Origin: Candidatus Uhrbacteria bacterium
GTDB taxonomy: Bacteria; Patescibacteriota; Patescibacteriia; UBA9934
Length of the DNA stretch: 64,000 nt
Reading direction: 5' to 3'
Assembly (NCBI GenBank): GCA_943350635.1
Contig: CALRAI010000001.1
Span: forward strand, 4,051-68,050
Program-made: the position numbers and the translations under genes
Notes under the pieces: generated by a model
What the model saw: only the letters and a program-made list of their open reading frames with translations
Told to the model about the DNA's origin: nothing
Database searches by the model: none
Shown: one piece after another, positions 4,403-40,606 of the stretch
How the letters are laid out: every line of letters begins with the position of its first letter
Numbering within the stretch: position 1 is the stretch's first letter

Positions 4403-5913
4403 TCAATATTGCTTCTTCGGCGGAAGGCCGACGCCTTTTGGAGGAATACCTGGTGGCAAGCCAACGTTATTCGGTTTTGGTTCCGTTGATCCATCGCTGG
4501 ACGACGATGCGCTGCTCGACGACATCATCGGCGCGCGTTGTCCTTCTAGGTTTTTAAACGACGCATGCGTTGCATCCCAGTACAGCGGCACCATGCCGGT
4601 TGGTCCGTTACGATGTTTAGCGATATGTACTTCCGCGCGGGTTTTTTCCTCCGGCGTGAGTTCTTCTGGTTGATAGTTTCTATCCGCAGCTTTGCGATAC
4701 AAGAACATGACGACGTCCGCATCCTGCTCAATACTTCCCGAGTCGCGAAGGTGAGCGAGCTTTGGAATAGCAGGCTTTGTCATTTCCACCGCACGAGAAA
4801 GCTGCGCCAACGCGAGCACAGGAACATTGAGCTCACGCGCAATCTGCTTTAACCCGCGAGAAATCTCCGCAACTTCCTGCACACGATTGTCCGTTTTCTT
4901 TCGCGCTTCCATAAGCTGCAAGTAGTCGATAACAATCATCGAAAGTCCGTGCTCGCTTTGGAGCCGACGAGCCTTGGTGCGAATACTCATGATGGTTGCA
5001 ATCGGCGAGTCGTCAATAAAGATCGGTGCTTCCGAAAGTTTGCCGAGCGCCTCGCCGATACGCGGAAAATCATCAGCGCTTTCGCTCAATCGACCAGTAC
5101 GCAGCTTCCACAAATCCACATTCGCTTCCGCGGAAATCATACGATCGACGAGCTGCTCCTTGCTCATTTCCAAACTGAAGAATCCCACCGGTTTTCCGGT
5201 TCGTAAGGCTACATTGCGAATAATGTCCATAGCAAACGACGTTTTTCCCACGGAAGGTCGCGCAGCCAAAATAATCAGATCGGAGTTCTGAAGCCCAGCA
5301 AGAAGATTATCGATTCCCACGAATCCCGTTGCAACACCACGAAGCTTTCCCTTTTCTTTGTGAAGCTCATCGATTCTGTCGAATGCTTCTGTGAGTAATG
5401 TATGCAACGGCGTGAACGATTGCTTAATGAAATTTTGTGACACGTTGAATAGCCGACGTTCTGCCTCGTCGAGTAACACGTCAACGTCTTGCGATTCGTC
5501 GAATCCAAGATCGGTAATGTCACTTGCGGCACGAAGTAACCGACGTAGCGCCGCTTTCTTTGCAATAATATCGGCGTGGTGAGCGACGTGTGCGGCGGTA
5601 GTCGTTACGTTCGTGAGTTCGACAAGCGCCGTTCGTCCACCAATTTGTTTGAGCACGCCTTTTTCCTCGAGTCTGTTTCCCAGCGTCAACACATCGATCG
5701 GCTCATGACGGTCGACGAGCTCGAGCATCACCTCGTACAAAATGCGATGGGAATCTTTATAGAAATCCTCCGATCGTAACGCGTCGCCAATCTTGAGTAG
5801 CACATCCTGATCCAACAAAAGCGAGCCCAGCAGCGAACGCTCGGCTTCAAGATTGTGAGGAGGAATGCGCCCAACGTCGGCCATAGATAGCGCTATGGTA
5901 ACCGACTCTGGCA
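4403..5913 (-). CDS. dnaB: replicative DNA helicase DnaB
   Basis: DnaB N-domain (NLEAERSLLGSLLLD), Walker A (ARPSVGKTSFAMD), Walker B (IVIDYLQLM) and an arginine finger region. Start chosen at MPESV (5913). Unusual ~50-aa Ser/Pro-rich C-terminal tail. Confidence 0.9.
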
Positions 5914-8932: not shown

Positions 8933-9012
8933 ATAGTAATATACAAAGCTTGGGCAACCAGTGGGCAACGAGAAAGAGAGAACAATAAAAATATCCAACA
9001 ACTGTTGGATAT

Positions 9013-9042
9013 TTTTGGTGCGCCGAGCGGGGATCGAACCCG
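9013..9042. repeat. distal att direct repeat (30 bp copy of tRNA-Lys 3' end)
   Basis: TTTTGGTGCGCCGAGCGGGGATCGAACCCG is identical to 19984-20013, which includes the 3' 27 nt of tRNA-Lys. Confidence 0.75.
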
Positions 9043-9400
9043 ATGATGGCAATTTACGAAAGATGAGCAATAACAGGCAAAAACGCAGGAAAAGCCATTG
9101 GCTGTTGCTGTTTCTCAATTCTCATAGTTACACATTGTTACTCGACAAAATACACAATCCATCACTTTATGGGCAACGGGTGGGCAACACCTCCGGGGAG
9201 TGATGGAATTTTGGCTCATCTGATTCGATGCTATCAATGACGATCAGATGCGATCTGGATTATGGAATCCGTTTGTTTATTTTAATTTCTCAATTCTCCT
9301 TATTTCAGTGGATGGAGCCTCTCCTCAAGAAAAGGGCAGCATGCATATCGGGTGATATACTTTGCAGAAGGATTGGCCCATTTAATTACTAAATACCCAT

Positions 9401-10105
9401 ATGGGCGATATAGAAGTGAAATACTCCTCCAGAGGGAAACAACCCCTAACCGCACAGAACCTTAAAACGAAGGGGTGGTGGAGATTCGCGCAAGTTATTT
9501 TTGTACTTGGATCAATTTTGCTGTTTGCCTTGACCCTCCTCTTTGCTGGTGCCGCGATTAGTGAAACCACTCCTCTCGTTCCCAGTGAAAGCTCGATTAC
9601 TTGCAACAATGGCCAGGTTTTTAACCTGAAGAGCTTTGATGAAAGTCTTAACATATACACGTACGGCTTCAGTCCTGTAGATAGTAATGGTCGATTCACA
9701 GACTATTCCGATGACGCAACAGCAAAAATGTTCTGCACAGCGTTGAACCGTGATCGCTTCGAACTCTCTCCTTTACCGGAAGGAAGCTCAATAACACCCG
9801 CGCGCAAGGCTGAACTTGATGCCATCATAATCAAGCAGCTTCAGAGTCAAACGCAAGAAGAGTGGGCTGCAAACATGACGAAAAATTCCGTCAGAAAGGC
9901 TAGTTATTCAGACCTCGAGGATATTCACTCTCGTGAGACTAGTAAGCAAGGTGAGAACATGGGCTATTCTATTGACGCAAAAAAGGATTATTCTGAGGTA
10001 TTCGTTATACTAGGCTTCTTCGTTTTAGCGTTGATCATCGAAGCAGGGCTTTTGTTTGTAGTAAGAGGAATTGTTCGGTACACACTTATTAGTAAGTTCT
10101 TTTAG
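9401..10105 (+). CDS. hypothetical membrane protein (N- and C-terminal TM)
   Basis: Two hydrophobic helices flank a Ser/Thr-rich extracellular region. Confidence 0.4.
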   Translation: MGDIEVKYSSRGKQPLTAQNLKTKGWWRFAQVIFVLGSILLFALTLLFAGAAISETTPLVPSESSITCNNGQVFNLKSFDESLNIYTYGFSPVDSNGRFTDYSDDATAKMFCTALNRDRFELSPLPEGSSITPARKAELDAIIIKQLQSQTQEEWAANMTKNSVRKASYSDLEDIHSRETSKQGENMGYSIDAKKDYSEVFVILGFFVLALIIEAGLLFVVRGIVRYTLISKFF

Positions 10106-10251
10106 CATTTTTCACGAATCGGGCCAGAAAGGAGCGTCATGAGAGCAAACTACAGCATTGCAAGAATGTATTACTCACGAATCTTTACCTTTTCCTTTTA
10201 CACGAACCATAAATTGGGCTGCGTGTGAGAAGGATTTCGTGTTTAGCGGAA

Positions 10252-10842
10252 CTATGAACTTCTGTTCTGTTCCGATTCATTGAGTACAAAACTAGCCCAT
10301 TGCGCTTTCATTTCTTGTTCTAAGAAATAATGACATGACCCAAAATAGCCGCGACAATACTTTTCGGTCAACCGAAGAAACAGAGGAGCTTTTACCTCGA
10401 TCATGAAACGACGGGCTTCTGGCGAAAGACCCTTAGATTGACGGAGGTTATCAGTCAAATCAGCCAGTTTTATACGCCAAGCATCTTCATCGTCCGCTTC
10501 GATCAATTTCGCCGTCATCAGCATCCAGCGCTCAGTGGAGTTTTCTATATCGAGCGGATGAGTGCCGAGTGCCACAAAGTGAATGGTTCGGTCAGTGAAT
10601 CCCATATCTCTAAGTTCCTGAAAGGAAACACCTCCATCTTCGACGACATCATGGAGTAATGCAGCAAGAAACAAGTCATCGTCGCAATCGTCACAATGGT
10701 GGCACGAAATAACGAGATCTCTCACTCGAAAGGAATGCAGATAGTTCGGTTCGTCTGGTAAGCTTTTACGAGTACCCTGAATACGCTCGCGAACGAGCGT
10801 CTCTGCCCTCCCTTTCAATTCTAAATACTGTGTGAGTTCCAT
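10252..10842 (-). CDS. HD-domain small alarmone hydrolase-like protein (SpoT/Mesh1-type HD)
   Basis: HSFRVRD…AALLHDVVEDGG…FG matches the (p)ppGpp hydrolase HD motifs H…HD…D of RelA/SpoT. 196 aa with no synthetase domain. Confidence 0.55.
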   Translation of the reverse strand: MELTQYLELKGRAETLVRERIQGTRKSLPDEPNYLHSFRVRDLVISCHHCDDCDDDLFLAALLHDVVEDGGVSFQELRDMGFTDRTIHFVALGTHPLDIENSTERWMLMTAKLIEADDEDAWRIKLADLTDNLRQSKGLSPEARRFMIEVKAPLFLRLTEKYCRGYFGSCHYFLEQEMKAQWASFVLNESEQNRSS

Positions 10843-11134
10843 ACAAAATACGTGAAGAATAAACGCAAAAGCGATTGAGAGATATGACCCAGATTGCTCT
10901 GGATGAAATCTCCCAACCGCTTAATGCAGTCAGTTCTCACATCGCTTGTGGCTCTCAGCAGATTTCCCTGATTGCCTACCCTCTTGGAGGGAGTGATGTG
11001 GGTGTTCGTCTTTACGACGGACGCACCTCTTTGCTCTTACTTCTTCACTATAACTGAAAAATGGGGTTTGGTCAAAGCATCCCAGTAAGCTAGAGTGATG
11101 TTTCGCTAATTTTATTCAGAGACTTTGTACTGGA

Positions 11135-12583
11135 TTATTCAATGCTTCCAGATGGTAGCTTTGTAAGATCTGTATTCGTTATACCCAAACCAAGCTCGCG
11201 CATGATTGAATACGCAGCTGAACCATCTTTCATGTAAACGCGAGTGCAAGTAGCCGGATCAACGTACCAAGCCTCTCCATGTTGCTCTACCTGAAGAAGA
11301 ATTGTTCCCCTCACTTGATTCGCGATTTTATTAGTTAGGCACACGTTTGGAGCATCTTTAATATCGGCAGCTTCCTCGACCGAGGGAATTGTTTCTAGAT
11401 CTTTATTGGTAATACCAAGGCCGAAGGATCGCATCATGTTATACGCGGTGGTTCCATCTTTCATATAATAACGTAGCGAATCTGATGGATAGATGTACCA
11501 TGCCTCGCCATGCTCTTCTACCTGGAGCAATATTGATCCTGAGAGGCGCTCAACTAAAGCCGTATCTAACTTTTCTGGGTCATAAGCTCCTGCAAGATCT
11601 ATATCTGTTGACGATGAGGAATCTATCGATTCGGTGTCAGTAGTATCTGTACTGACAGTCGCTGATGGTGTCGGAATGGAATAACTATACGTCCAGTAAT
11701 AATAACTGCTTCTATTTCCGTAGAGGTCTACTGCAGAGACATTAAGATAGTAGGTTCCTGGGCCATAAAGGGTCGCGAGACTGCCATTTGTGGTTTGATA
11801 TGTTCCGTACGTATAGGGATCTTGAGCGCTTGTTCCGAGATAAACATAATAGCCTGCAACCCCGCTCGCGTCTGATACCCCCTGCCAAGTGAAAAAGGGA
11901 GTCGAATCAGTTCCTGACTGCCAAGAACCAAGAGTTGACGCTGATGAATCTGCATAAACAGAAGCCGTGGCACTCGAAAAATCGGGTGCAGTAATGTCGG
12001 AATATGTATATGAAGAAGATGTGCTAGTCGAGATTGAATCAGAACTCCAGACCCGACATTCATCGTCCGAGTCAAAAAGATAGATTGTGTCGGAAATACC
12101 ATCAAGCGAATAACCTCCAATATCAATATAAATGTATTTATTTTCGTATCGCCACATGCTTAAACATCCAATCCCATACTCTACAAGGTAGTCATAACCT
12201 GATGTATCTTCAACTAAAATTTGATCAGATCCGATATCACTGAGTATGAAATATTTTTTTAAGTTTAGGGAATCAACCGAATTCACCGTACAGGCCTTTG
12301 TATCAAACATACCTTGAACAAGAATCGTATTTCCATATCCCGGAGAATAATAGGTATCAATCCAAAATGTCTCTCCAGTAGAGAAGTCAGAACTTGAGCA
12401 ATCCCAGGAATAGCCGATTTTATAATAAGATCCGTAACCGTCAGCGATAACTAGATCGTTGTAGGAGCTGCTCAATACTACAAAACCCTTAAGATTAGAT
12501 GCGAAAACATTCTTAATAGGCGCCAATATTGTAACCAGAATGCAGACAACGACTATCTGTAACTTAAAATTATTCATATACAT
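11135..12583 (-). CDS. secreted repeat protein with two C-terminal ~50-aa tandem repeats
   Basis: Signal peptide. Ser/Thr/Tyr-rich FN3-like middle region. C-terminal repeats SILLQVEEHGEAWYIYP…LGITNKDL and TILLQVEQHGEAWYVDP…LGITNTDL. Confidence 0.55.
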   Translation of the reverse strand: MYMNNFKLQIVVVCILVTILAPIKNVFASNLKGFVVLSSSYNDLVIADGYGSYYKIGYSWDCSSSDFSTGETFWIDTYYSPGYGNTILVQGMFDTKACTVNSVDSLNLKKYFILSDIGSDQILVEDTSGYDYLVEYGIGCLSMWRYENKYIYIDIGGYSLDGISDTIYLFDSDDECRVWSSDSISTSTSSSYTYSDITAPDFSSATASVYADSSASTLGSWQSGTDSTPFFTWQGVSDASGVAGYYVYLGTSAQDPYTYGTYQTTNGSLATLYGPGTYYLNVSAVDLYGNRSSYYYWTYSYSIPTPSATVSTDTTDTESIDSSSSTDIDLAGAYDPEKLDTALVERLSGSILLQVEEHGEAWYIYPSDSLRYYMKDGTTAYNMMRSFGLGITNKDLETIPSVEEAADIKDAPNVCLTNKIANQVRGTILLQVEQHGEAWYVDPATCTRVYMKDGSAAYSIMRELGLGITNTDLTKLPSGSIE

Positions 12584-12976
12584 AATTTAAATCTCTAGTA
12601 ACTCTTATCCAAAGTTTTTTAACCAATCATGAAAGTCTCGAATGATGGGTTTTCGCTTTCCAAGCTGTATAAACAAATGATCCTGACGAGCATCTTCTTC
12701 CTTTTGTTTTTGATCCCTTTCTTCTACAGTTTTCCGATATTCGATTTCACCGCGCAATAAAGCACGTCTCTCGGAACGGCAATGACCAGGTTTTATATAA
12801 AGAGTGCGTAAAACTTCTCAGGAAAAGAAATTTTCACACTCACGACATCCTATTTCTTTTGGGATTTTTCCCTCAGAAAACCACATCTGTGATTCATCAA
12901 TCTCATCATTACAAGCCGGACAGAGATATGTTGCGACTTGGAAAATAACCATATATAGGCTGGCGTAATTGATCGT

Positions 12977-13231
12977 TTATAAATTGTTGAAAAATCTTAC
13001 AACGATTGAGCCAAGATGGCTTGCAATAACGAATGCAATAATCATGCTTCCAAATCCAACAATCAAAACTAGCGCACTTTTTAAAACATTTGGCTTCTCT
13101 CCCTCAATAACAAGTCCTTCTATTTGTTTTTCAGAAGTCGGTTTCGCTTCTACTCCACAAGATGAACAGAATCTTGCGTTATCTATAGTTTTCTCTCCAC
13201 AATTCCTACAAAACATATATTTTACAAGCAA
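12977..13231 (-). CDS. zinc-ribbon membrane protein (small)
   Basis: CRNCGEKTIDNARFCSSCG double CxxC motif followed by a TM helix. Confidence 0.45.
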   Translation of the reverse strand: MLVKYMFCRNCGEKTIDNARFCSSCGVEAKPTSEKQIEGLVIEGEKPNVLKSALVLIVGFGSMIIAFVIASHLGSIVVRFFNNL

Positions 13232-13758
13232 TCAGCTTTACTAAATGATGCAAAATAACTTTGTCCCGTTTCACTGACCACATATGAATATTCCATATTT
13301 ATATCTCGGTTCAAAAGACTTTTTGTGTCACTATTTTGACAGAGACTTGTTCCAAGATAATTTTTCAAATATGCGTTTGAAAGACTGCTCGTATCCGCGC
13401 CAGTAAGGGTGTAATGATAACGAATAGCCCCGGGCTCTGCTGTAATGTCAGTAAGTGTTGTTAATTCATCCGTATGATACGGCAATGGCATGCTAGCCTT
13501 TGTTTGCCTAACTGTCTCGCTAATGAGTTCAGCTTTTGATGTGTTGCTTATGGAAGACGAAGAGATTCCTTGTGTTAAATAACGACCTACGCCGATTGCC
13601 AATATAGAAACGATAACAGAAATTACGCTAATAAACGTGGATTTTCTTTTTGTTCTTTCGACAGAGATGGCGGTTGATCCAGTAACAACTTTTTCTCCAC
13701 ATTTATTACAGAATTTTGCACCATCCTCAAGTTTATTGCCGCATTTTTTGCAATTCAT
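13222..13758 (-). CDS. zinc-ribbon membrane protein with extracytoplasmic domain
   Basis: MNCKKCGNKLEDGAKFCNKCGEKV, then a TM helix and a ~110-aa outside domain. Overlaps its neighbours, so operon-like. Confidence 0.5.
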   Translation of the reverse strand: MNCKKCGNKLEDGAKFCNKCGEKVVTGSTAISVERTKRKSTFISVISVIVSILAIGVGRYLTQGISSSSISNTSKAELISETVRQTKASMPLPYHTDELTTLTDITAEPGAIRYHYTLTGADTSSLSNAYLKNYLGTSLCQNSDTKSLLNRDINMEYSYVVSETGQSYFASFSKADCL

Positions 13759-13767
13759 AAAATATTG

Positions 13768-14088
13768 TTAGTAATCAAATGTTTCTTCGCAAACATACAA
13801 TCCGTTAGAACTATCGGGTACTTTACAATTCTTTCCGCACTCAAAGTCGTCGCTCGAATTATTTCGTTGCTGTTTTAGATTTGTAGCCCAGGAAAGACAT
13901 GAGGCGCGATCATCAAATTGCGGACTGTAAATGTATTGGTCTGTGCAAGCCAAGCAGCCATCAGGATAATAAAAACCGAGCCACGTTTCTTTTTGGGAAA
14001 GACAGCCTGCGCCAGACAAAAGCAAGGTGAGAATGAAGAGGGGCACGATTAGCGATCTTTTCATACTACTTCGATATATAGCTTCCAA
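13768..14088 (-). CDS. small secreted Cys-rich protein
   Basis: Signal peptide and 6 Cys residues. 106 aa. Confidence 0.4.
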   Translation of the reverse strand: MEAIYRSSMKRSLIVPLFILTLLLSGAGCLSQKETWLGFYYPDGCLACTDQYIYSPQFDDRASCLSWATNLKQQRNNSSDDFECGKNCKVPDSSNGLYVCEETFDY

Positions 14089-14992
14089 TAGCGGACTGTA
14101 GGAATGCGACGGCCTGCACGATGACGAAAATAAGCACCGGATTAATATCGACGAATAAACTTATAAACCAAGATATCACGAAAGTGAGGAGGAGGGATTT
14201 TATGATAGTTTGCATCGTCCAGCCCCCGCTGTGCTCTACTTTTGGCTTCTCCCTCTGATCGAGCAAGAATTCCAGATGCTTCAGTATTTCCGAACTGTTT
14301 CTGAATTCAAATTGGGAAATTCCGCAAAACTCTTGAGAACCCTGCTCAAAGAGCAGATCGTCAAAATTCTTTTTTACAAAATCAGCCTTTTCTTCTCGTT
14401 CACTATCTGAAAGATCTTCAGTTTTCTTGAACCAAATATTCTTTCCGTATTCGCTTTCCACGATTTGTAAGTCTGAGTCTGTGGCGTCCTTCACTTTATC
14501 CTCTATTCTATTTAAACCCATCTTTATCCTTTCGACCGTCTGCCTTAAATACTTTCTATAATCCTCTCGCGAGAGAGAATCCGAATGAAGAGAAAGGATG
14601 AAAAAGATCTCAGCATAAGACACGGCTAGATTTAACTTTTGCCATTCGATCTCCTTATTCAATCGCTCGAGAAGTTCTTTGCGATGGTACTCGGAGGGTG
14701 CCTCCAAGATGGACTCTAGCACTACGCCGTCTTTCACTTCTTCCTTTAGGGGCGGCTCGATGGATTTGTATTTTAAGCGAACGAAGACCTCAATCGGGTT
14801 TGTGTTTATTTTGTATTCGTAAATCTCGTTTATATAAAAACAGTCGTCATTTATGCTCCTGTGAGAATCGAATTCTTTCCTTTCTGGATAAAAGGTTAGG
14901 GTCAATGAGCTCCAATCATCATCAATTGAAATAGTCCTGTCTTCATCCATGACTTCAATGTTTGGAATGCTCATATTTATTTTGCAGTGCAA
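14066..14992 (-). CDS. hypothetical protein with C-terminal membrane anchor
   Basis: Charged coiled-coil-rich soluble region with a double TM at the C-terminus. Overlaps the flanking genes. Confidence 0.45.
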   Translation of the reverse strand: MHCKINMSIPNIEVMDEDRTISIDDDWSSLTLTFYPERKEFDSHRSINDDCFYINEIYEYKINTNPIEVFVRLKYKSIEPPLKEEVKDGVVLESILEAPSEYHRKELLERLNKEIEWQKLNLAVSYAEIFFILSLHSDSLSREDYRKYLRQTVERIKMGLNRIEDKVKDATDSDLQIVESEYGKNIWFKKTEDLSDSEREEKADFVKKNFDDLLFEQGSQEFCGISQFEFRNSSEILKHLEFLLDQREKPKVEHSGGWTMQTIIKSLLLTFVISWFISLFVDINPVLIFVIVQAVAFLQSAIGSYISK

Positions 14993-15873
14993 TGCTCGCT
15001 TAAGTAGTCATTGTACTTTTCAATTTGCTTATTATAAACGTCTATTTTGATCCGAAGAATATTTTCATCAGCTTGGTATAATCTCAAATCACCATTATAT
15101 TTGTCGACGAGTGAATTGTGCATTTCTATTTCAAAATCATCCGTCGAATCATAAATGTCATTTTCTATTTGTTTACGGAAAATATTCAAGTCAGCATCCT
15201 TTTGATCAAGAGACTTTCTTTCCAAAGATAACTCGGTACGCACAGTTTCTATTGGGGCCAGAATATCGGATTGTTCTGCGAAATAATTCGTACAATTATA
15301 TTCTCCTACCGTTACCATATCGTCATTCAGAATAGGATTAGAATTCACGGAATCAGTGCTGATTCCCGATAGACCGCCACCGAAAGATATCAAAGCGATT
15401 GCATAAATAGCGTCGAACCAGAAAATGCGCAATTTGTTCGCGATCCAGATCAAGACGACTAAAGGAAATGCGAGATAGTATAGGGGGCTTCCCCCGTTTT
15501 TGATCGCATTTTTACTAGAGCTATGAATATGCTCCATATCGTGATCACTTGGAAAGGAATGCATTCCCACCGAGATCGCTAGCCAAAGCAAAAAATACCA
15601 AAGGCCGCTTCCTGAAATTGCATTAGCTGCGATGAAGCTCAAGGCTACTGTACCTATTGAGTTCACCAATAACGGTCCGACAGAGATCCAGAAAGTCTGC
15701 TTGTATGTCTTTGGTTCTTCGTGTGAAACGTATCCTGCTGGATTTCCAAATTGAAAATAAACGACTTTATGGACACGAACGCCAAGATGATCGCAGAATA
15801 TTTTATGCGCCCATTCATGAACAACCACACCCGGGAACGTCAATAAAGAAATGAGCCAGCCAGGTATAAACAT
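14977..15873 (-). CDS. membrane zincin-like protein (HExxH in first TM; DUF3267/M50-like) with C-terminal coiled coil
   Basis: VVVHEWAHKIF motif inside the N-terminal hydrophobic region. At least 4 TM helices. Asp/His-rich loop. Coiled-coil tail. Confidence 0.45.
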   Translation of the reverse strand: MFIPGWLISLLTFPGVVVHEWAHKIFCDHLGVRVHKVVYFQFGNPAGYVSHEEPKTYKQTFWISVGPLLVNSIGTVALSFIAANAISGSGLWYFLLWLAISVGMHSFPSDHDMEHIHSSSKNAIKNGGSPLYYLAFPLVVLIWIANKLRIFWFDAIYAIALISFGGGLSGISTDSVNSNPILNDDMVTVGEYNCTNYFAEQSDILAPIETVRTELSLERKSLDQKDADLNIFRKQIENDIYDSTDDFEIEMHNSLVDKYNGDLRLYQADENILRIKIDVYNKQIEKYNDYLSEHCTAK

Positions 15874-15901
15874 ATTTTATTAACCTTACAATAACAGAAA
15901 A

Positions 15902-16042
15902 CACAAAGCCCGCCGCTAGCCGACACCTTGCGGTGTCCATACCCCTTTCGAGATATGACCATACAAAGGAAGCTGAACGACGGGTTCAGTACTTTGTATG
16001 GGTTTACTGCCATACCTCACGGTTGATCCGAGAGGGTTAGGC
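15902..16042. ncRNA. conserved structured element, copy 1 (nested hairpin CCATACAAAG…CTGAACGACGGGTTCAG…CTTTGTATGG)
   Basis: About 140 nt, alignable to 40373-40516 with compensatory changes in the outer stem. Lies in a divergent intergenic region of the island. Strand and function unknown. Confidence 0.4.
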
Positions 16043-16098
16043 AAATTCAATTTTCGAACGTTGTTATTATGGAATTTTTCGGCTAACGTTGTCAAAGA

Positions 16099-17010
16099 GT
16101 GAGGTTTATCGAAAGCTGTTTCGCGAACAAAGAATGCGTATTTATGAAGAATGCAAAAATAGTAATTGATGATTATTCCATTAGCCTATACACATCTCAT
16201 CTTAAGAGAGGAAATTACCGTGTCGGGGAAGTGATGCAGATATTGCTCTTGAGAAGCGACTTTAATGATTTTATATTGCGGTTAGAGTTGAGTGGACTTA
16301 CCCAGGTGGTGCCAAGTTCCGAAAATGAAGACAGTTGGATACATAACGGCATAATTACGCATAAACGTGTCGATGGCTATCTAGCGATAATATTGCAAAC
16401 TGATTTCTTTAAAAATCGTACAGAAATTTGGTTAATGAACTTTACCTCCATCGCAAAAAGAATACTCATAGAGTCCTACGCACGAGGAAGTGCTATGAAA
16501 TTGAGTCACAATGCGGAAGAAAAAATTGTTATTTCAAGCGATGATATTAACTACCCGAATATTTTATATTCATTGATTGAGATAGATGACGGCTTTCGTA
16601 AGATTCTAGATACGAATAAATTTGAGCAGGAACCGGATATGATGCCCATTTTTATAGAGAATGGTCGATTTTTTGAAATCAGCATCAATGCTCAAGTTAC
16701 GAAACCAGAGCTTATAAGTTTTATCGAAAAAAACTGGAGTGAAATAGAAAGAGATGTAAGGGGACGAAATCCTTCAGAAAAGAAAGAGAGAGCATCAAGT
16801 TCTTCAAATTTCTTACGTGATATTAAAATACTTAATAAATATAATGATTTTAAGAATGAAGGTTTTAAAAATCCGGATGTAAAAGTATTTTCCTGGTTAT
16901 TAAAAGAGGATCAGATAGAAATTGAGCCGAATACTGTGCGAAAAATAGTATCGAATCTTAATAAATCAATAAGAATGTTAAATAGCGATTCTTTAAAGGA
17001 TAAAATCTGA
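16099..17010 (+). CDS. hypothetical protein
   Basis: 303-aa ORF with a GTG start (an ATG at 16144 is an alternative). No motif recognised. Confidence 0.45.
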   Translation: MRFIESCFANKECVFMKNAKIVIDDYSISLYTSHLKRGNYRVGEVMQILLLRSDFNDFILRLELSGLTQVVPSSENEDSWIHNGIITHKRVDGYLAIILQTDFFKNRTEIWLMNFTSIAKRILIESYARGSAMKLSHNAEEKIVISSDDINYPNILYSLIEIDDGFRKILDTNKFEQEPDMMPIFIENGRFFEISINAQVTKPELISFIEKNWSEIERDVRGRNPSEKKERASSSSNFLRDIKILNKYNDFKNEGFKNPDVKVFSWLLKEDQIEIEPNTVRKIVSNLNKSIRMLNSDSLKDKI

Positions 17011-17133
17011 TACTCAACATTTTGTGCTAAATAAAATCGGCTATCTTTTCACGATTTCGTGAATTAATCTGGCTGCTTAAATTCGAACGACGTTCTATTT
17101 TTATAAAAGTACTCTCTCAAAGTACTTTTAATT

Positions 17134-17403
17134 TTGTTTATGCGTATGCAAGCAATATCGACAAATGACACGTTTCCTTCCCGCGATTGGGTACTTATCG
17201 CAACCCTCTCCTCCCTCGGCTTCCCGATTGAAGCCGTGGAGCAAGACTCACAGGCTCGGACAATCTTTCACATACAGCGCTCCGACAGCCTGGACGACGT
17301 TATACAGCGATTCTGGAGGCGTGAGCTGCGTGTTGAGCCTCAGGAGTTCAACCAGCACATGAAGCTCGTGAAGGCTCGCATGTATGACGCTAAGATTTTC
17401 TAA
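17134..17403 (+). CDS. hypothetical small protein
   Basis: 89-aa ORF preceded by the palindrome AAAAGTACT-N7-AGTACTTTT at 17096-17121. Confidence 0.35.
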   Translation: MFMRMQAISTNDTFPSRDWVLIATLSSLGFPIEAVEQDSQARTIFHIQRSDSLDDVIQRFWRRELRVEPQEFNQHMKLVKARMYDAKIF

Positions 17404-17427
17404 GACATTCAAAATTAATGCGTATAT

Positions 17428-17979
17428 ATGGCGAGAAAAAGAATGCTTCACGCAAAGATCTGGGACAGCAATCAATTCAACTCATTAAAACCACTACTTC
17501 GTTTACTTTACATAGGTTTGGTCACTATCGCGGATGACTATGGCTGTTTTCGTGCAGAGGGCACGTTTCTCAGGCGAAAGCTGTTACATTCAGACAGGAT
17601 TAGCCCGGCACAAATTGATGCAATGTTGCAGAAAATTAACGAAGTTGGATTGATTGAATATCGTCAAACAGAATTCGGTTCCATCGGCATTCATCCGAAG
17701 TGGGACACGTATCAGAAGCTCCGTAAGGACATTGCTAGGTCTAGCGACTTTCCTGACCTCGACGTATACGCCATGGATCTGCCATGGCTACGTGACGTCA
17801 ACATAAGAGAAGACAAGATAAATAAAGAAAGCTCAGAATCAGGGGAAGAAAAGAGAATTGAAATTAGTGAAAGAGAACTTGCGCCGATCTTCTCCGGAAG
17901 AGAGCAGACAGAGCGGGCTCTGGCTGCATTCAAGAAGAAACAGAAAGAGAAACTGAATCCATTCTCTGATCTTCTATGA
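17428..17979 (+). CDS. hypothetical protein (possible winged-helix DNA-binding/replication-associated)
   Basis: ORF immediately upstream of the xis/int module. The assignment is speculative. Confidence 0.4.
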   Translation: MARKRMLHAKIWDSNQFNSLKPLLRLLYIGLVTIADDYGCFRAEGTFLRRKLLHSDRISPAQIDAMLQKINEVGLIEYRQTEFGSIGIHPKWDTYQKLRKDIARSSDFPDLDVYAMDLPWLRDVNIREDKINKESSESGEEKRIEISERELAPIFSGREQTERALAAFKKKQKEKLNPFSDLL

Positions 17980-18533
17980 GTAAAAACTCTTGTGACGATT
18001 ATCAGAAATTATCAGTGTATCGGCTTCGGGATTTTGGATGCTTTTCATACTCTTCTTCGCATGATCTCTCCTGGGGGAAAGGTGAAAATCGGAGCAGTAT
18101 CGGCCTCACCACCTTCCTTGAAGACGATCCTATAAGAATGAGGCTCAGCTATATCTACTCCAGCCGATACAGTGATCGAAAGCTATCGGTGGACGATGAT
18201 GTTCTACTATCAAAAACTCAATGTCATTTCGGTGGCGTTCGTTGGTGGATGCATTGCCCGGTGCTTCGTAATAGCCTGCCATGTAATCGACGTACCGCAA
18301 TTCTTTTCATGGTTGGTGGCCGATTTGGATGCAGAGATTGCCATGATCTTACCTATGAAAGCCGAAAGATCAGGCCATCGCTACGGCCGTATCTCTCACT
18401 TCTTATACCAATGACCCTCGATCAAAAGTATGCACGTTCCCGATACTGGAAAGGGCGAAAAACCAAGCGAACTCGAAGAATAGATGCAAAGTGGGATGCG
18501 TGGGAAGAACCAACGGGATTAATGAACTTCTAA
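17976..18533 (+). CDS. hypothetical Cys-rich (zinc-binding?) protein
   Basis: CHFGGVRWWMHCP…CNRR…CRDCHD cysteine/histidine cluster. Overlaps the upstream gene by 4 nt. Confidence 0.4.
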   Translation: MSKNSCDDYQKLSVYRLRDFGCFSYSSSHDLSWGKGENRSSIGLTTFLEDDPIRMRLSYIYSSRYSDRKLSVDDDVLLSKTQCHFGGVRWWMHCPVLRNSLPCNRRTAILFMVGGRFGCRDCHDLTYESRKIRPSLRPYLSLLIPMTLDQKYARSRYWKGRKTKRTRRIDAKWDAWEEPTGLMNF

Positions 18534-18614
18534 TTATTTCGATCGTGTAGAATGGGAGCGTTGCTCATTGAGGAAGAAATTCCTCCCTGGAACGTCGCTC
18601 CTTAACAACTAAAT

Positions 18615-18863
18615 ATGACCAAAGATGAAAATCTCGCTTCTGAGAGTAGTTTTCTGAATCCACTTGAACTCGCTGAACTGCTACGACTCTCGCGTGCTAG
18701 CGTGTACCGCCTCGTGGAAAGGCGAAAGATCAGCTTCCATCGATTACCGAGAGGATTGCGGTTTAGTAGAAGAGATATTGATGGCTACTTACAGAAATGC
18801 AGGGTTGAATCTTTGGAGGATGTATATGAGCGCGAGAAAAATAAGACAAAGCTGGTGGGTTGA
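18615..18863 (+). CDS. xis: excisionase/AlpA-family HTH DNA-binding protein
   Basis: LELAELLRLSRASVYRLVERRKISFHRLPRGLRFSRRDIDGYL is a typical Xis/AlpA HTH_17. Directly precedes the integrase. Confidence 0.6.
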   Translation: MTKDENLASESSFLNPLELAELLRLSRASVYRLVERRKISFHRLPRGLRFSRRDIDGYLQKCRVESLEDVYEREKNKTKLVG

Positions 18864-19953
18864 TTTCCGCTTCGGATTTCAACGCTACCGTATACGCAGT
18901 CCAGAATGCAGTCGTGCTGGAGCGCAAGCATATGAAGCAACGCTTCGAAAGATGCTCGCCGCTGGGGAGAGTATTGATGAAGGTCAGAAAAAGTTAGTGA
19001 AGTTTCAAGACTTTGCCGCCGATTGGTTCCGGGTGTATGTGATGAACAATAACAAGTTATCAGTACAGCTAACACAACGAGGCATACTCGATATCCATCT
19101 ACTCCCACACTTCGGTAAGTACGGACTCCCGGAGATCACATCACAGGTGGTTGAACGTTATAAGGCAAAGAAGACCAACGAAGGACTTGCGCCAAAGTCG
19201 ATTAACAATCAACTTGGAGTACTCCGACGATGCTTGCAGATTGCTATGGAATGGGGCTCGCTTGATAAGCTCCCTATGATCAAGATGCTCAAAACTCCAC
19301 CACCTGTCGTTATATTCCTCAACGAGGCTGAATGTAAGGCTCTCTTAGCGGATCATATGGAACCAATGGCGAATCTGATGATTCTGACTGCGTTGCGCAC
19401 TGGGATGCGTTTGGGTGAGCTGTGTGGCCTATCGTGGGAGGATATCGACTTCAAGAGCGGGATTCTTACCGTAAGGCATTCGTTCGTTCGGGGTGAAATG
19501 AACTCCCCCAAAAGTAATAAGATCCGACATATTCCGATAACAGCCGATTTAACCGAAGCTTTGAAGAAGAGCGCAAAACCCTGTGGCCTTGTCTTCCACA
19601 TCGATAAGAAGCCGATCACGGGCTATGCAGGCTCGGAAATACTCGGTCGTGCATGTATTCGTACGGGTATAAAACACATCGGTTGGCACAAACTCCGTCA
19701 TACCTTCGCTTCACAGCTTGTGGCGCGTGGAGCGAACCTGAGGGCTGTTCAAGAGCTCCTTGGGCACTCAACGATTCAAATGACGGAACGATACGTGCAT
19801 CTCGCTCCTTCGTCGCTCCGACAGGCGATGTCAGTATTGGAAGAAACACCAAAGGGAGAAAGTTTGGGCAACCCGTGGGCAACGGCACTTATTCAACAAG
19901 TACGTTATGAAGCGTTACCAAAGCTCAAAATGACCATGAATGTTGGGAAATAA
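18826..19953 (+). CDS. int: tyrosine-type site-specific integrase
   Basis: N-terminal SAM-like domain. Catalytic R…HKLRHTFAS…LGHSTIQMTERYVHL (R-H-R-Y). Adjacent to tRNA-Lys. Start taken at MSARKIRQSWW. Confidence 0.9.
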   Translation: MSARKIRQSWWVDFRFGFQRYRIRSPECSRAGAQAYEATLRKMLAAGESIDEGQKKLVKFQDFAADWFRVYVMNNNKLSVQLTQRGILDIHLLPHFGKYGLPEITSQVVERYKAKKTNEGLAPKSINNQLGVLRRCLQIAMEWGSLDKLPMIKMLKTPPPVVIFLNEAECKALLADHMEPMANLMILTALRTGMRLGELCGLSWEDIDFKSGILTVRHSFVRGEMNSPKSNKIRHIPITADLTEALKKSAKPCGLVFHIDKKPITGYAGSEILGRACIRTGIKHIGWHKLRHTFASQLVARGANLRAVQELLGHSTIQMTERYVHLAPSSLRQAMSVLEETPKGESLGNPWATALIQQVRYEALPKLKMTMNVGK

Positions 19954-19986
19954 AAAGATTCCGATGCCATTAACATCAGAATCTTT

Positions 19987-20061
19987 TGGTGCGCCGAGCG
20001 GGGATCGAACCCGCGACCACGAGCTTAAAAGGCTCTTGCTCTACCACTGAGCTACCAGCGC
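19987..20061 (-). tRNA. tRNA-Lys (anticodon TTT)
   Basis: Folded by hand as a cloverleaf: acceptor GCGCTGG/TCGGCGC, anticodon loop CTTTTAA, T-arm GGTTCGATCC, encoded CCA. Confidence 0.85.
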
Positions 20062-40372: not shown

Positions 40373-40516
40373 CACAAAGCCCGCCGCCAGCATTGTGACT
40401 TTCATCACCGCACCCCTTTCGGAGTACGACCAACCAAGGCTTTGCTGAACGACGGGTTCAGTGCCTTGGTTGGGTTTAGCACCATGCCATGGTCGATGTC
40501 CGATCATGGTTTAGGC
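40373..40516. ncRNA. conserved structured element, copy 2
   Basis: Aligns with 15902-16042. Inner hairpin CTGAACGACGGGTTCAG is identical. Outer stem CCAACCAAGGC/GCCTTGGTTGG covaries with CCATACAAAG/CTTTGTATGG in copy 1. Confidence 0.4.
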
Positions 40517-40606
40517 GACTCTAAGTTGTACGCACATAGTAGCTTATTGCAGAAAACTACTCAAATTGAGTTGCCTACAGTTTGCTTTAGGGATTTTTGA
40601 GGAGAT

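Follow-up and report, generated by a model that had tools for sequence, protein, structure and literature searches.

Why would a small mobile element in a patescibacterial genome carry a stand-alone alarmone hydrolase, and what switches that enzyme on? The question is raised by a gene for a 196-aa protein in a 64,000-nucleotide stretch of a Candidatus Uhrbacteria genome (contig CALRAI010000001.1; this whole stretch is hereafter the window), which a reading of the sequence alone had described as a SpoT-type small alarmone hydrolase (SAH) closing an island's cargo operon. We know of no classical stringent response in ultra-small bacteria such as Patescibacteria. Our analysis supports the SAH assignment and places the gene within an integrated element of ~11 kb, and it reveals that the gene is preceded by a conserved, structured leader RNA. 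This leader, missed in the sequence-only reading, stands out as the most unusual part of the locus. We consider it probable, with some reserve, that promoter, leader and gene form an RNA-switched, mobile 3'-pyrophosphohydrolase module that detoxifies alarmone-type toxins or defenses, a reading in which we infer the substrate, the ligand and the role. The features discussed below are collected in Table 1.

We located the RelA/SpoT homolog (RSH) hydrolase signature, AALLHDVVEDGG, at residues 60-71 of the protein. The NCBIfam model TIGR00691 matched with an E value of 6e-8, and the match was confined to the hydrolase region of that model (positions 17-131 of 687). Synthetase, TGS and ACT domains are lacking, as had been proposed: 196 residues leave no space for any of them, and an AlphaFold2 model built on the family alignment consists of one helical domain (predicted local distance difference test score 96.2, predicted template modeling score 0.91). 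About 100 homologs share 40-81% identity with the protein, all from metagenomes or metagenome-assembled genomes, and this breadth marks a real conserved gene rather than a chance open reading frame (ORF). The few homologs with names come from Candidatus Uhrbacteria, Taylorbacteria or 'Patescibacteria group', that is, all from Patescibacteria. Among the 73-95 relatives aligned, H36, H64, D65, E68, D69, K125, D128 and N132 are invariant and R25, K26 and G27 are kept in more than 90%, and the RSH-specific motifs HDxxED and (K/R)xxDxxxN are likewise invariant. The His/Asp metal ligands anticipated for such an enzyme were borne out, with H36, H64, D65, E68, D69, D128 and N132 aligning to Mesh1 and Rel; we take the catalytic and metal-binding roles of the conserved residues to be those established for Rel and Mesh1 structures.

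The best sequence match in the PDB was Drosophila Mesh1 (3nqw, E 3.3e-6), followed by Rel/RelA hydrolase domains. A profile of the family retrieved 21 PDB sequences, all of them RSH hydrolases, with Mesh1 (7.7e-18) and Rel (1.9e-17) at the top. In Foldseek searches with the model, the top 40 PDB matches were likewise all RSH hydrolases, with template modeling (TM) scores of about 0.6-0.75: human MESH1, Drosophila Mesh1, Rel/SpoT HD domains and RelH came out best, and further matches included the Pseudomonas aeruginosa SAH (PaSAH), the Treponema denticola SAH and the Bacteroides caccae (p)ppApp hydrolase. When we searched a representative library of 1.84 billion proteins with the family profile, 70 representatives scored at E<=1e-30 and 37,414 at E<=1e-3; scores showed no sharp break, so we place the family as a diverged branch of an SAH/RSH-HD continuum. 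Viral relatives were found in phrog_990 (E 1.3e-15), in BFVD (stand-alone viral '(p)ppGpp hydrolase'-like proteins), in IMG/VR and in jumbo Klebsiella and Serratia phages; none exceeds 37% identity to the hydrolase, and the closest of those from cultured phages and IMG/VR share 32-37% (tblastn; alignment scan of viral contigs). Fold, catalytic residues and architecture together support a SpoT/Mesh1-type SAH with predicted alarmone hydrolase activity, and the protein by itself adds a diverged new member to a known class. In three long relatives (P0114, P0107 and P0142) the hydrolase is fused, N- or C-terminally, to a Zeta-toxin/AAA_33-type P-loop kinase with the Walker A motifs GPVGSGKS and GGVGSGKT. 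This pairing of kinase and phosphohydrolase might hint at the class of substrate.

Upstream of the hydrolase gene, we found a conserved nucleotide element in all nine genomic contexts compared (the window and loci L004, L006, L008, L009, L010, L171, L172 and L173). The element is a structured leader RNA, and it precedes each of the nine hydrolase-family genes examined. Aligned, the nine sequences share one order: -35 and -10 boxes, a variable 5' hairpin, a long-range stem closing around P2 (CTCCC...GGG) and P3 (GGCAAYCNG-GGAAATCTG-CNGRGAGCC), the invariant segments TAGG and GACTRAYC, and finally a hairpin of ~22 bp with a U-tract, after which 25 nt remain to the ATG. To a core of eight family loci found through the protein, we added 27 sequences from a scan with the 16-mer GGTTGGGAGATTTCAT, which is an invariant part of the terminator's 5' arm (10899-10914 in the window). 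In this 35-sequence alignment (A5), RNAalifold called 39 pairs, 22 of them compensatory. Three pairs of the P3 stem (93/109, 94/108 and 95/107) show 10-18 double changes each, and terminator helices 4 and 5 are 97-99% paired with compensatory changes. Overall, 94.8% of leader cells are paired versus 38-48% in controls with slid partners, 180 cells are changed on both sides versus 22-46 in those controls, and none of 500 shuffles reached any of the observed pairing measures. The window leader itself folds with a minimum free energy (MFE) of -72.2 kcal/mol (z -5.9); this fold contains both the junction domain and the terminator.

A covariance model of the leader (R1) has one true match in the window, the leader itself (137.1 bits, E 4.7e-29), and one copy before each family gene (132-180 bits), including the gene of L173, which lay outside the training set. 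Across ~2.5 Mb of control sequence, made up of unrelated RSH loci and of viral SAH loci, R1 had no match. The controls came in part from a contig scan with the family alignment and the generic pattern ALLHD[VI][VI]ED, in which, among the matches listed, long Rel/SpoT genes prevailed and no context of the family appeared. Rfam 15 gave no relevant match at E<=10 across positions 10820-11120 of the window and, at gathering score, no leader match in the eight other loci. A resemblance to ykkC/ppGpp riboswitches was sought by eye and had no model support. The leader was absent from the literature searched, and searches on riboswitches of the candidate phyla radiation (CPR), on SAH leaders and on the stringent response in Patescibacteria returned nothing relevant. 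Opposite the leader runs a 60-aa ORF (10875-11057, plus strand), and two public assemblies (L001 and L002) call a 57-aa gene there; we rejected it as coding, and the call is most likely spurious because conservation in this segment acts on nucleotides and structure and covers both strands.

How far does this conserved unit extend? The leader lies in the 292-nt gap between the hydrolase gene and an upstream gene for a 482-aa protein, and the same gap holds a promoter-like site of its own. As a whole, the promoter consensus scan was not above chance; the -35 and -10 boxes keep one position throughout the aligned homologous loci. When L171, L286 and L004 are compared with the window, nucleotide similarity sets in at 11077-11075, exactly at the -35 box, continues across the leader and stops inside the ORF. 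A 35-nt upstream block has 97% identity between the window and L004, and the two hydrolases 66%. The closest homolog (81% identity) has a leader that is 94.6% identical to ours and a serine recombinase, not a tyrosine integrase, as its neighbor. Neighboring genes differ among the nine contexts and are mostly mobile or defense genes: Type I, III and IIG restriction-modification genes, Shedu-like SduA_C, AbiE, GmrSD, a PanA toxin-antitoxin pair (helix-turn-helix [HTH] plus Panacea), Fic, an AAA_13 ATPase, a Schlafen-like helicase, serine recombinases, a rolling-circle replication (RCR) Rep and HTH_17 genes. Because similarity starts at the -35 box and the carriers differ, promoter, leader and gene behave as a discrete cargo module that moves between elements. 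The proposed place at the end of a cargo operon therefore did not hold: with conserved -35/-10 boxes and a terminator-containing leader of its own, the module, as judged from the loci compared, occurs in different mobile elements and defense islands and is not the tail of an operon. Several of these islands abut tRNA genes (L172, 4757-4827; L009, 15671-15741; L173, 10953-11025; L006, 1-51), and in L009 it is a serine recombinase that adjoins the tRNA. This points to repeated integration of different carriers at tRNA targets. In L173, a PanA-type gene lies directly downstream of the hydrolase.

The leader is found well beyond these nine loci. Scanning with the 16-mer gave at least 120 metagenome stretches and 12 viral-contig stretches, and among the matches listed, 47 of 132 also contain the second conserved block, correctly spaced. 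Another 34 complete motifs among the matches listed are followed by 700 nt of sequence or more; within ~0.75 kb of 22 of these, on the same strand, is an HD_4/SAH-like gene. One such downstream protein, of 258 aa, matches HD_4 at E 3.4e-15, and at several loci a small gene stands between leader RNA and hydrolase. Every locus has a same-strand ORF 50-275 nt downstream of the leader. Other downstream genes encode a Cys-rich family of ~115 aa (fused in L257 to the C-terminus of an HD_4 protein), a family of ~80-110 aa with 'GDIIY...FGDSWA' motifs and a third small family, all three without Pfam assignment; one further gene encodes an HTH_3 + SocA_Panacea (PanA-type) antitoxin. On the sequences at hand, then, the leader stands mainly before hydrolase genes, though not before these alone. 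Because the genes that it precedes are heterogeneous, its signal need not be the substrate of the hydrolase. None of the viral SAHs from our scans of viral contigs and cultured phages has the leader, and a search of viral contigs re-anchored on the P3 loop returned one true instance, which was already known. The sole genuine leader on an IMG/VR contig (L303, IMGVR_UViG_3300025323_000435, 4869-5060, minus strand, 145.6 bits) precedes a 79-aa 'GDIIY...FGDSWA' protein, not a hydrolase.

The arrangement of the leader suggests how it might act as a switch. The 5' arm of the terminator (GCGGTTGGGAGATTTCAT...) is much more conserved than the 3' arm. Its GGTTGG is complementary to the upstream linker CTRAYC (within GACTRAYC), and its AGATTTC to the P3 loop GAAATCT, a pairing that is compatible in 35/35 sequences, with the 16-mer and the P3 loop block fixed by the search in 27 of those 35 (and in 41 of a 50-sequence alignment); eight family loci in A5, and nine in all, are unbiased for both segments. 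The two alternative pairings are possible in 455/455 cells, compared with 31-62% for slid partners, and all 32 changes in CTRAYC preserve wobble pairing. We infer an ON-switch logic: by default, transcription from the module promoter would stop at the intrinsic terminator, and the invariant 5' arm could instead pair with the CTRAYC linker and the P3 loop in a pseudoknot-like fold. Any signal that stabilizes that fold would allow transcription to continue into the hydrolase gene. The simplest candidate for the signal is a small-molecule ligand, and the substrate of the enzyme itself, or a nucleotide related to it, would be a plausible one.

The carrier in the window is an integrated element, as had been thought from its sequence. 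A tyrosine integrase lies beside a tRNA-Lys gene whose 3' end is repeated ~11 kb away as a perfect 30-bp match (present twice in the window, where chance would give none), and GC content between the two attachment (att) repeats falls to 0.37-0.46 from ~0.50-0.54 outside. The hydrolase gene is 1.2 kb inward of attL. Genes flanking the element are chromosomal (ParB-like, RecR, DnaB, a permease, a P-type ATPase and a Mur ligase), and the named relatives of RecR are all from Patescibacteria or Uhrbacteria.

In the reading that we favor, the hydrolase would be an active, metal-dependent enzyme that removes a 3'-pyrophosphate (or phosphate) from nucleotides, with (p)ppGpp/(p)ppApp-type alarmones, or possibly pyrophosphorylated tRNA ends, as its substrates. 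It would be not a core stringent-response gene but a cargo module within an 11-kb element at the tRNA-Lys of an Uhrbacteria-like patescibacterium, and would act as an inducible detoxifier, shielding the cell or the element from alarmone-producing toxins or abortive-infection systems. The mobile and defense-island contexts of the module, and the Panacea-type antitoxin under the same leader, fit such a detoxifying or counter-defense role. A number of observations weigh against it. Pfam HD_4 (PF13328) did match the protein as predicted (E 4.9e-5), but the score of 23.5 bits lies below the 27.2-bit gathering score, so that membership goes by profile and fold; several close relatives score above that cutoff (P0103 with 31.8 bits, P0114 with 37.7 bits), and we therefore read the shortfall as divergence, not exclusion. 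PADLOC returned no defense-system model for any gene of the element, and no defense or anti-defense assignment. We searched the 64-kb window and 1.13 Mb of related loci for synthetase or toxic small alarmone synthetase (toxSAS) domains and detected none, using a hidden Markov model (HMM) made only from long RSHs of the control loci and without a toxSAS positive control. An unoccupied attachment site was not found in relatives with a 90%-identical RecR; in these, synteny differs beyond the permease and the tRNA-Lys is absent at that position. One homolog lies within a housekeeping queuosine cluster, and the leader also precedes non-hydrolase genes, among them small proteins and the PanA-type antitoxin. 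Finally, the antiterminator lacks double-sided covariation, because the search pattern imposed the invariance of arm and P3 loop in 27 of the 35 aligned sequences.

The leader invites two other accounts. It may be no metabolite riboswitch at all but an attenuator that depends on a protein or a tRNA, or else a small RNA gene in its own right, such as one for an RNA antitoxin or regulator, that merely travels with the hydrolase. We give this a modest probability: the leader has its own promoter and a strong terminator, its aptamer-like domain and terminator coexist in the MFE fold, it stands before heterogeneous genes including an antitoxin, and it has no known ligand. The same-strand ORF downstream at every locus points the other way, as do the multi-stem junction with invariant unpaired nucleotides, reminiscent of ligand-binding aptamers, and the terminator's 5' arm, whose conservation beyond the needs of pairing and complementarity to two conserved segments are hallmarks of an expression platform. 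A bolder version of the preferred reading, that the leader is a new riboswitch class sensing an alarmone-type or toxin-derived nucleotide, such as (p)ppGpp, (p)ppApp or another 3'-phosphorylated nucleotide related to them, and switching on a mobile 'antidote regulon' of hydrolase, PanA-type antitoxin and several small proteins in Patescibacteria, is doubtful.

The enzyme has its own alternatives. Solved structures nearest to it are metazoan Mesh1/MESH1, including complexes with NADPH and 3'-phosphoadenosine 5'-phosphosulfate (PAPS), and these complexes and the Zeta-toxin/AAA_33 fusions of the three longer relatives, which hint at nucleotide-sugar or NAD-type substrates, make another phosphorylated nucleotide possible as substrate. 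One report describes an orphan bacterial SAH with promiscuous activity (PMC9765508). A Mesh1-like metabolic phosphatase acting on NADPH, PAPS or another phosphorylated nucleotide, with the leader sensing that metabolite, is nevertheless unlikely, given that identity to MESH1 is just 22-24%, that matches to bacterial Rel/SpoT HD domains are comparable, and that a mobile, defense-island context is untypical of central cofactor metabolism. Still less probable is housekeeping turnover: a host with a reduced CPR genome would use this protein as its normal (p)ppGpp hydrolase in place of SpoT/Rel, and the island location of the gene would be incidental. The intact RSH active site, the homolog among queuosine/tRNA-modification genes and the lack of a long RSH in the window would suit such a role, which sits poorly with a gene inside an integrated low-GC element, with eight of nine contexts in mobile or defense islands and no conserved neighbors, with a module boundary at its own promoter, and with no synthetase (by the long-RSH HMM) to require turnover. 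A generic HD phosphohydrolase (a YfbR/dNTPase-like 5'-nucleotidase with no relation to alarmones) was the outcome that the sequence-only reading had named as fatal to it, and we find it scarcely credible. The generic Pfam HD family matches weakly (E 0.032) and phrog_990 is annotated merely as 'metal-dependent phosphohydrolase', but the significant sequence, profile and fold matches are all RSH-type, those in the PDB without exception RSH hydrolases. YfbR/dNTPase-type proteins were not among the significant PDB or BFVD matches, a 5'-deoxynucleotidase in BFVD reached no better than E 0.39, and both RSH-specific motifs are invariant.

What is new at this locus is a hydrolase family tightly and mobilely coupled to a structured leader RNA with a terminator platform. 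Were the leader a riboswitch, it would be an orphan candidate with informative genes beside it (alarmone hydrolase, antitoxin and defense-island neighbors) and would stand among the very few regulatory mechanisms defined for Patescibacteria. The module could then show how reduced epibiotic bacteria, or their elements, sense and neutralize nucleotide-based toxins. The antidote-regulon version, if true, would mean that mobile elements of ultra-small bacteria carry an RNA that senses attack by alarmone toxins.

Further features of the element and its surroundings bear on its history and cargo. The tandem motif TGGGCAAC-N3-TGGGCAAC occurs three times in the window, where none is expected by chance, and the two in-element copies near the att ends are plausibly arm-type sites of the integrase. 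The outer copy is 43 nt beyond attL, a hint that the unassigned region at 7.2-9.0 kb may keep traces of a previous tandem insertion. A candidate integrase remnant left of attL was rejected since the alignment gave it no support; the arm-type repeat alone is shared. The 482-aa protein (11135-12583, minus strand) has a signal-peptide-like N-terminus, a long Ser/Thr/Tyr-rich low-complexity region and, at its C-terminus, two repeats of the form ...ILLQVE(E/Q)HGEAWY..P...YMKDG..AY..M...GLGITN.DL. Pfam, PHROG and PADLOC gave no match for it, and the element probably carries it as cargo that acts at the cell surface or is secreted. The LOOT RNA motif (RF03000) occurs twice, at 15922-16043 and 40395-40517 (both minus strand; 91.5 and 77.7 bits). 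The copy inside the element is directly upstream of a string of genes that includes a DUF3267 (putative zincin) membrane protein, the chromosomal copy is upstream of a tRNA_anti-like protein with an oligonucleotide/oligosaccharide-binding (OB) fold, and the two downstream proteins are unrelated.

Table 1. Features of the hydrolase module, its leader and its carrier (positions refer to the window)
Feature	Position	Strand	Basis or remark
SAH gene: stand-alone RSH-type HD hydrolase, 196 aa	10252..10842	-	ATG-initiated ORF, HD_4/TIGR00691, AlphaFold2, Foldseek
Catalytic/metal residues of the hydrolase: R25, H36, H64-D65, E68-D69, D128, N132			Align with Mesh1/Rel motifs
Structured leader RNA, ~185 nt, riboswitch-like	10857..11042	-	9/9 contexts, covariation, covariance model
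Intrinsic terminator: ~22-bp hairpin (10871-10920) and U-tract (10867-10870)	10867..10920	-	Sequence, MFE fold
P3 hairpin GGCAATCAG-GGAAATCTG-CTGAGAGCC	10950..10976	-	Stem co-varies, loop invariant
Promoter-like site TTGACC-17-TATAGT for leader and hydrolase	11047..11075	-	10/12 consensus matches; predicted
Integrated element, ~11 kb	9013-20013		Integrase, Rep-like gene, 30-bp tRNA-Lys repeat, low GC
attL, 30-bp direct repeat identical to tRNA-Lys 3' end	9013..9042		Exact repeat
attR, second copy of the 30-bp repeat	19984..20013		Overlaps tRNA-Lys 3' end
tRNA-Lys(UUU), integration target	19987..20061	-	ARAGORN and Rfam
Tyrosine integrase of the element	18664..19953	+	Abuts tRNA-Lys; Pfam Phage_integrase 2.8e-33; phrog_1 9.6e-63
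Replication-initiator-like protein of the element	17428..17979	+	phrog_1408 E 9e-14
Tandem TGGGCAAC-N3-TGGGCAAC motif	9170..9188	+	Candidate integrase arm-type site, inside element
Further TGGGCAAC-N3-TGGGCAAC copies	19865-19883; 8951-8969		Inside element; outside attL
Loci with the leader before other genes, in four groups: L181, L193, L222, L275, L292, L257; L191, L205, L206, L221, L261, L280, L303; L201, L229, L240; L230

How does the module compare with known systems? Stand-alone alarmone hydrolases on phages and islands are a known theme, and Jimmy et al. (2020) reportedly recognized 11 SAH subfamilies. Like Mesh1/MESH1, the P. aeruginosa SAH, Corynebacterium glutamicum RelH and the B. 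caccae (p)ppApp hydrolase, our protein is a single-domain, helical HD_4 enzyme of ~180-200 aa that has the H...HD..ED...D...N motifs and no synthetase, TGS or ACT domain (TM 0.65-0.75). Unlike these solved SAHs, to which it is 15-24% identical, it belongs to a family of its own and has a dedicated leader RNA before its gene. Stand-alone SAHs, including PbcSpo of phage PVP-SE1 and PaSpo of phage SSU5, neutralize all toxSAS toxins tested, and phages have been proposed to use SAHs to bypass alarmone-based abortive infection (PMC7229694). Our hydrolase resembles these phage enzymes as a stand-alone hydrolase carried as mobile-element cargo, but its carrier is a small integrase/Rep element and not a recognizable phage, and its closest relatives from cultured phages and IMG/VR are only 32-37% identical. 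That element has the integrase at a tRNA 3' end, the repeat, the skewed GC content and the replication gene of tRNA-targeting tyrosine-integrase islands; unlike typical islands of this kind, it measures just 11 kb, resides in a CPR host and carries cargo that mostly has no family assignment. Riboswitches for ppGpp mainly control amino-acid biosynthesis and transport genes, not hydrolases. These riboswitches (ykkC subtype 2a) are a validated class (PMC6003355), and they share with our leader a conserved multi-stem domain followed by an intrinsic terminator. The leader differs from ykkC, and from every Rfam 15 family, in architecture and in having no detectable similarity to them, and its link to an alarmone-metabolizing gene makes alarmone sensing an obvious hypothesis.

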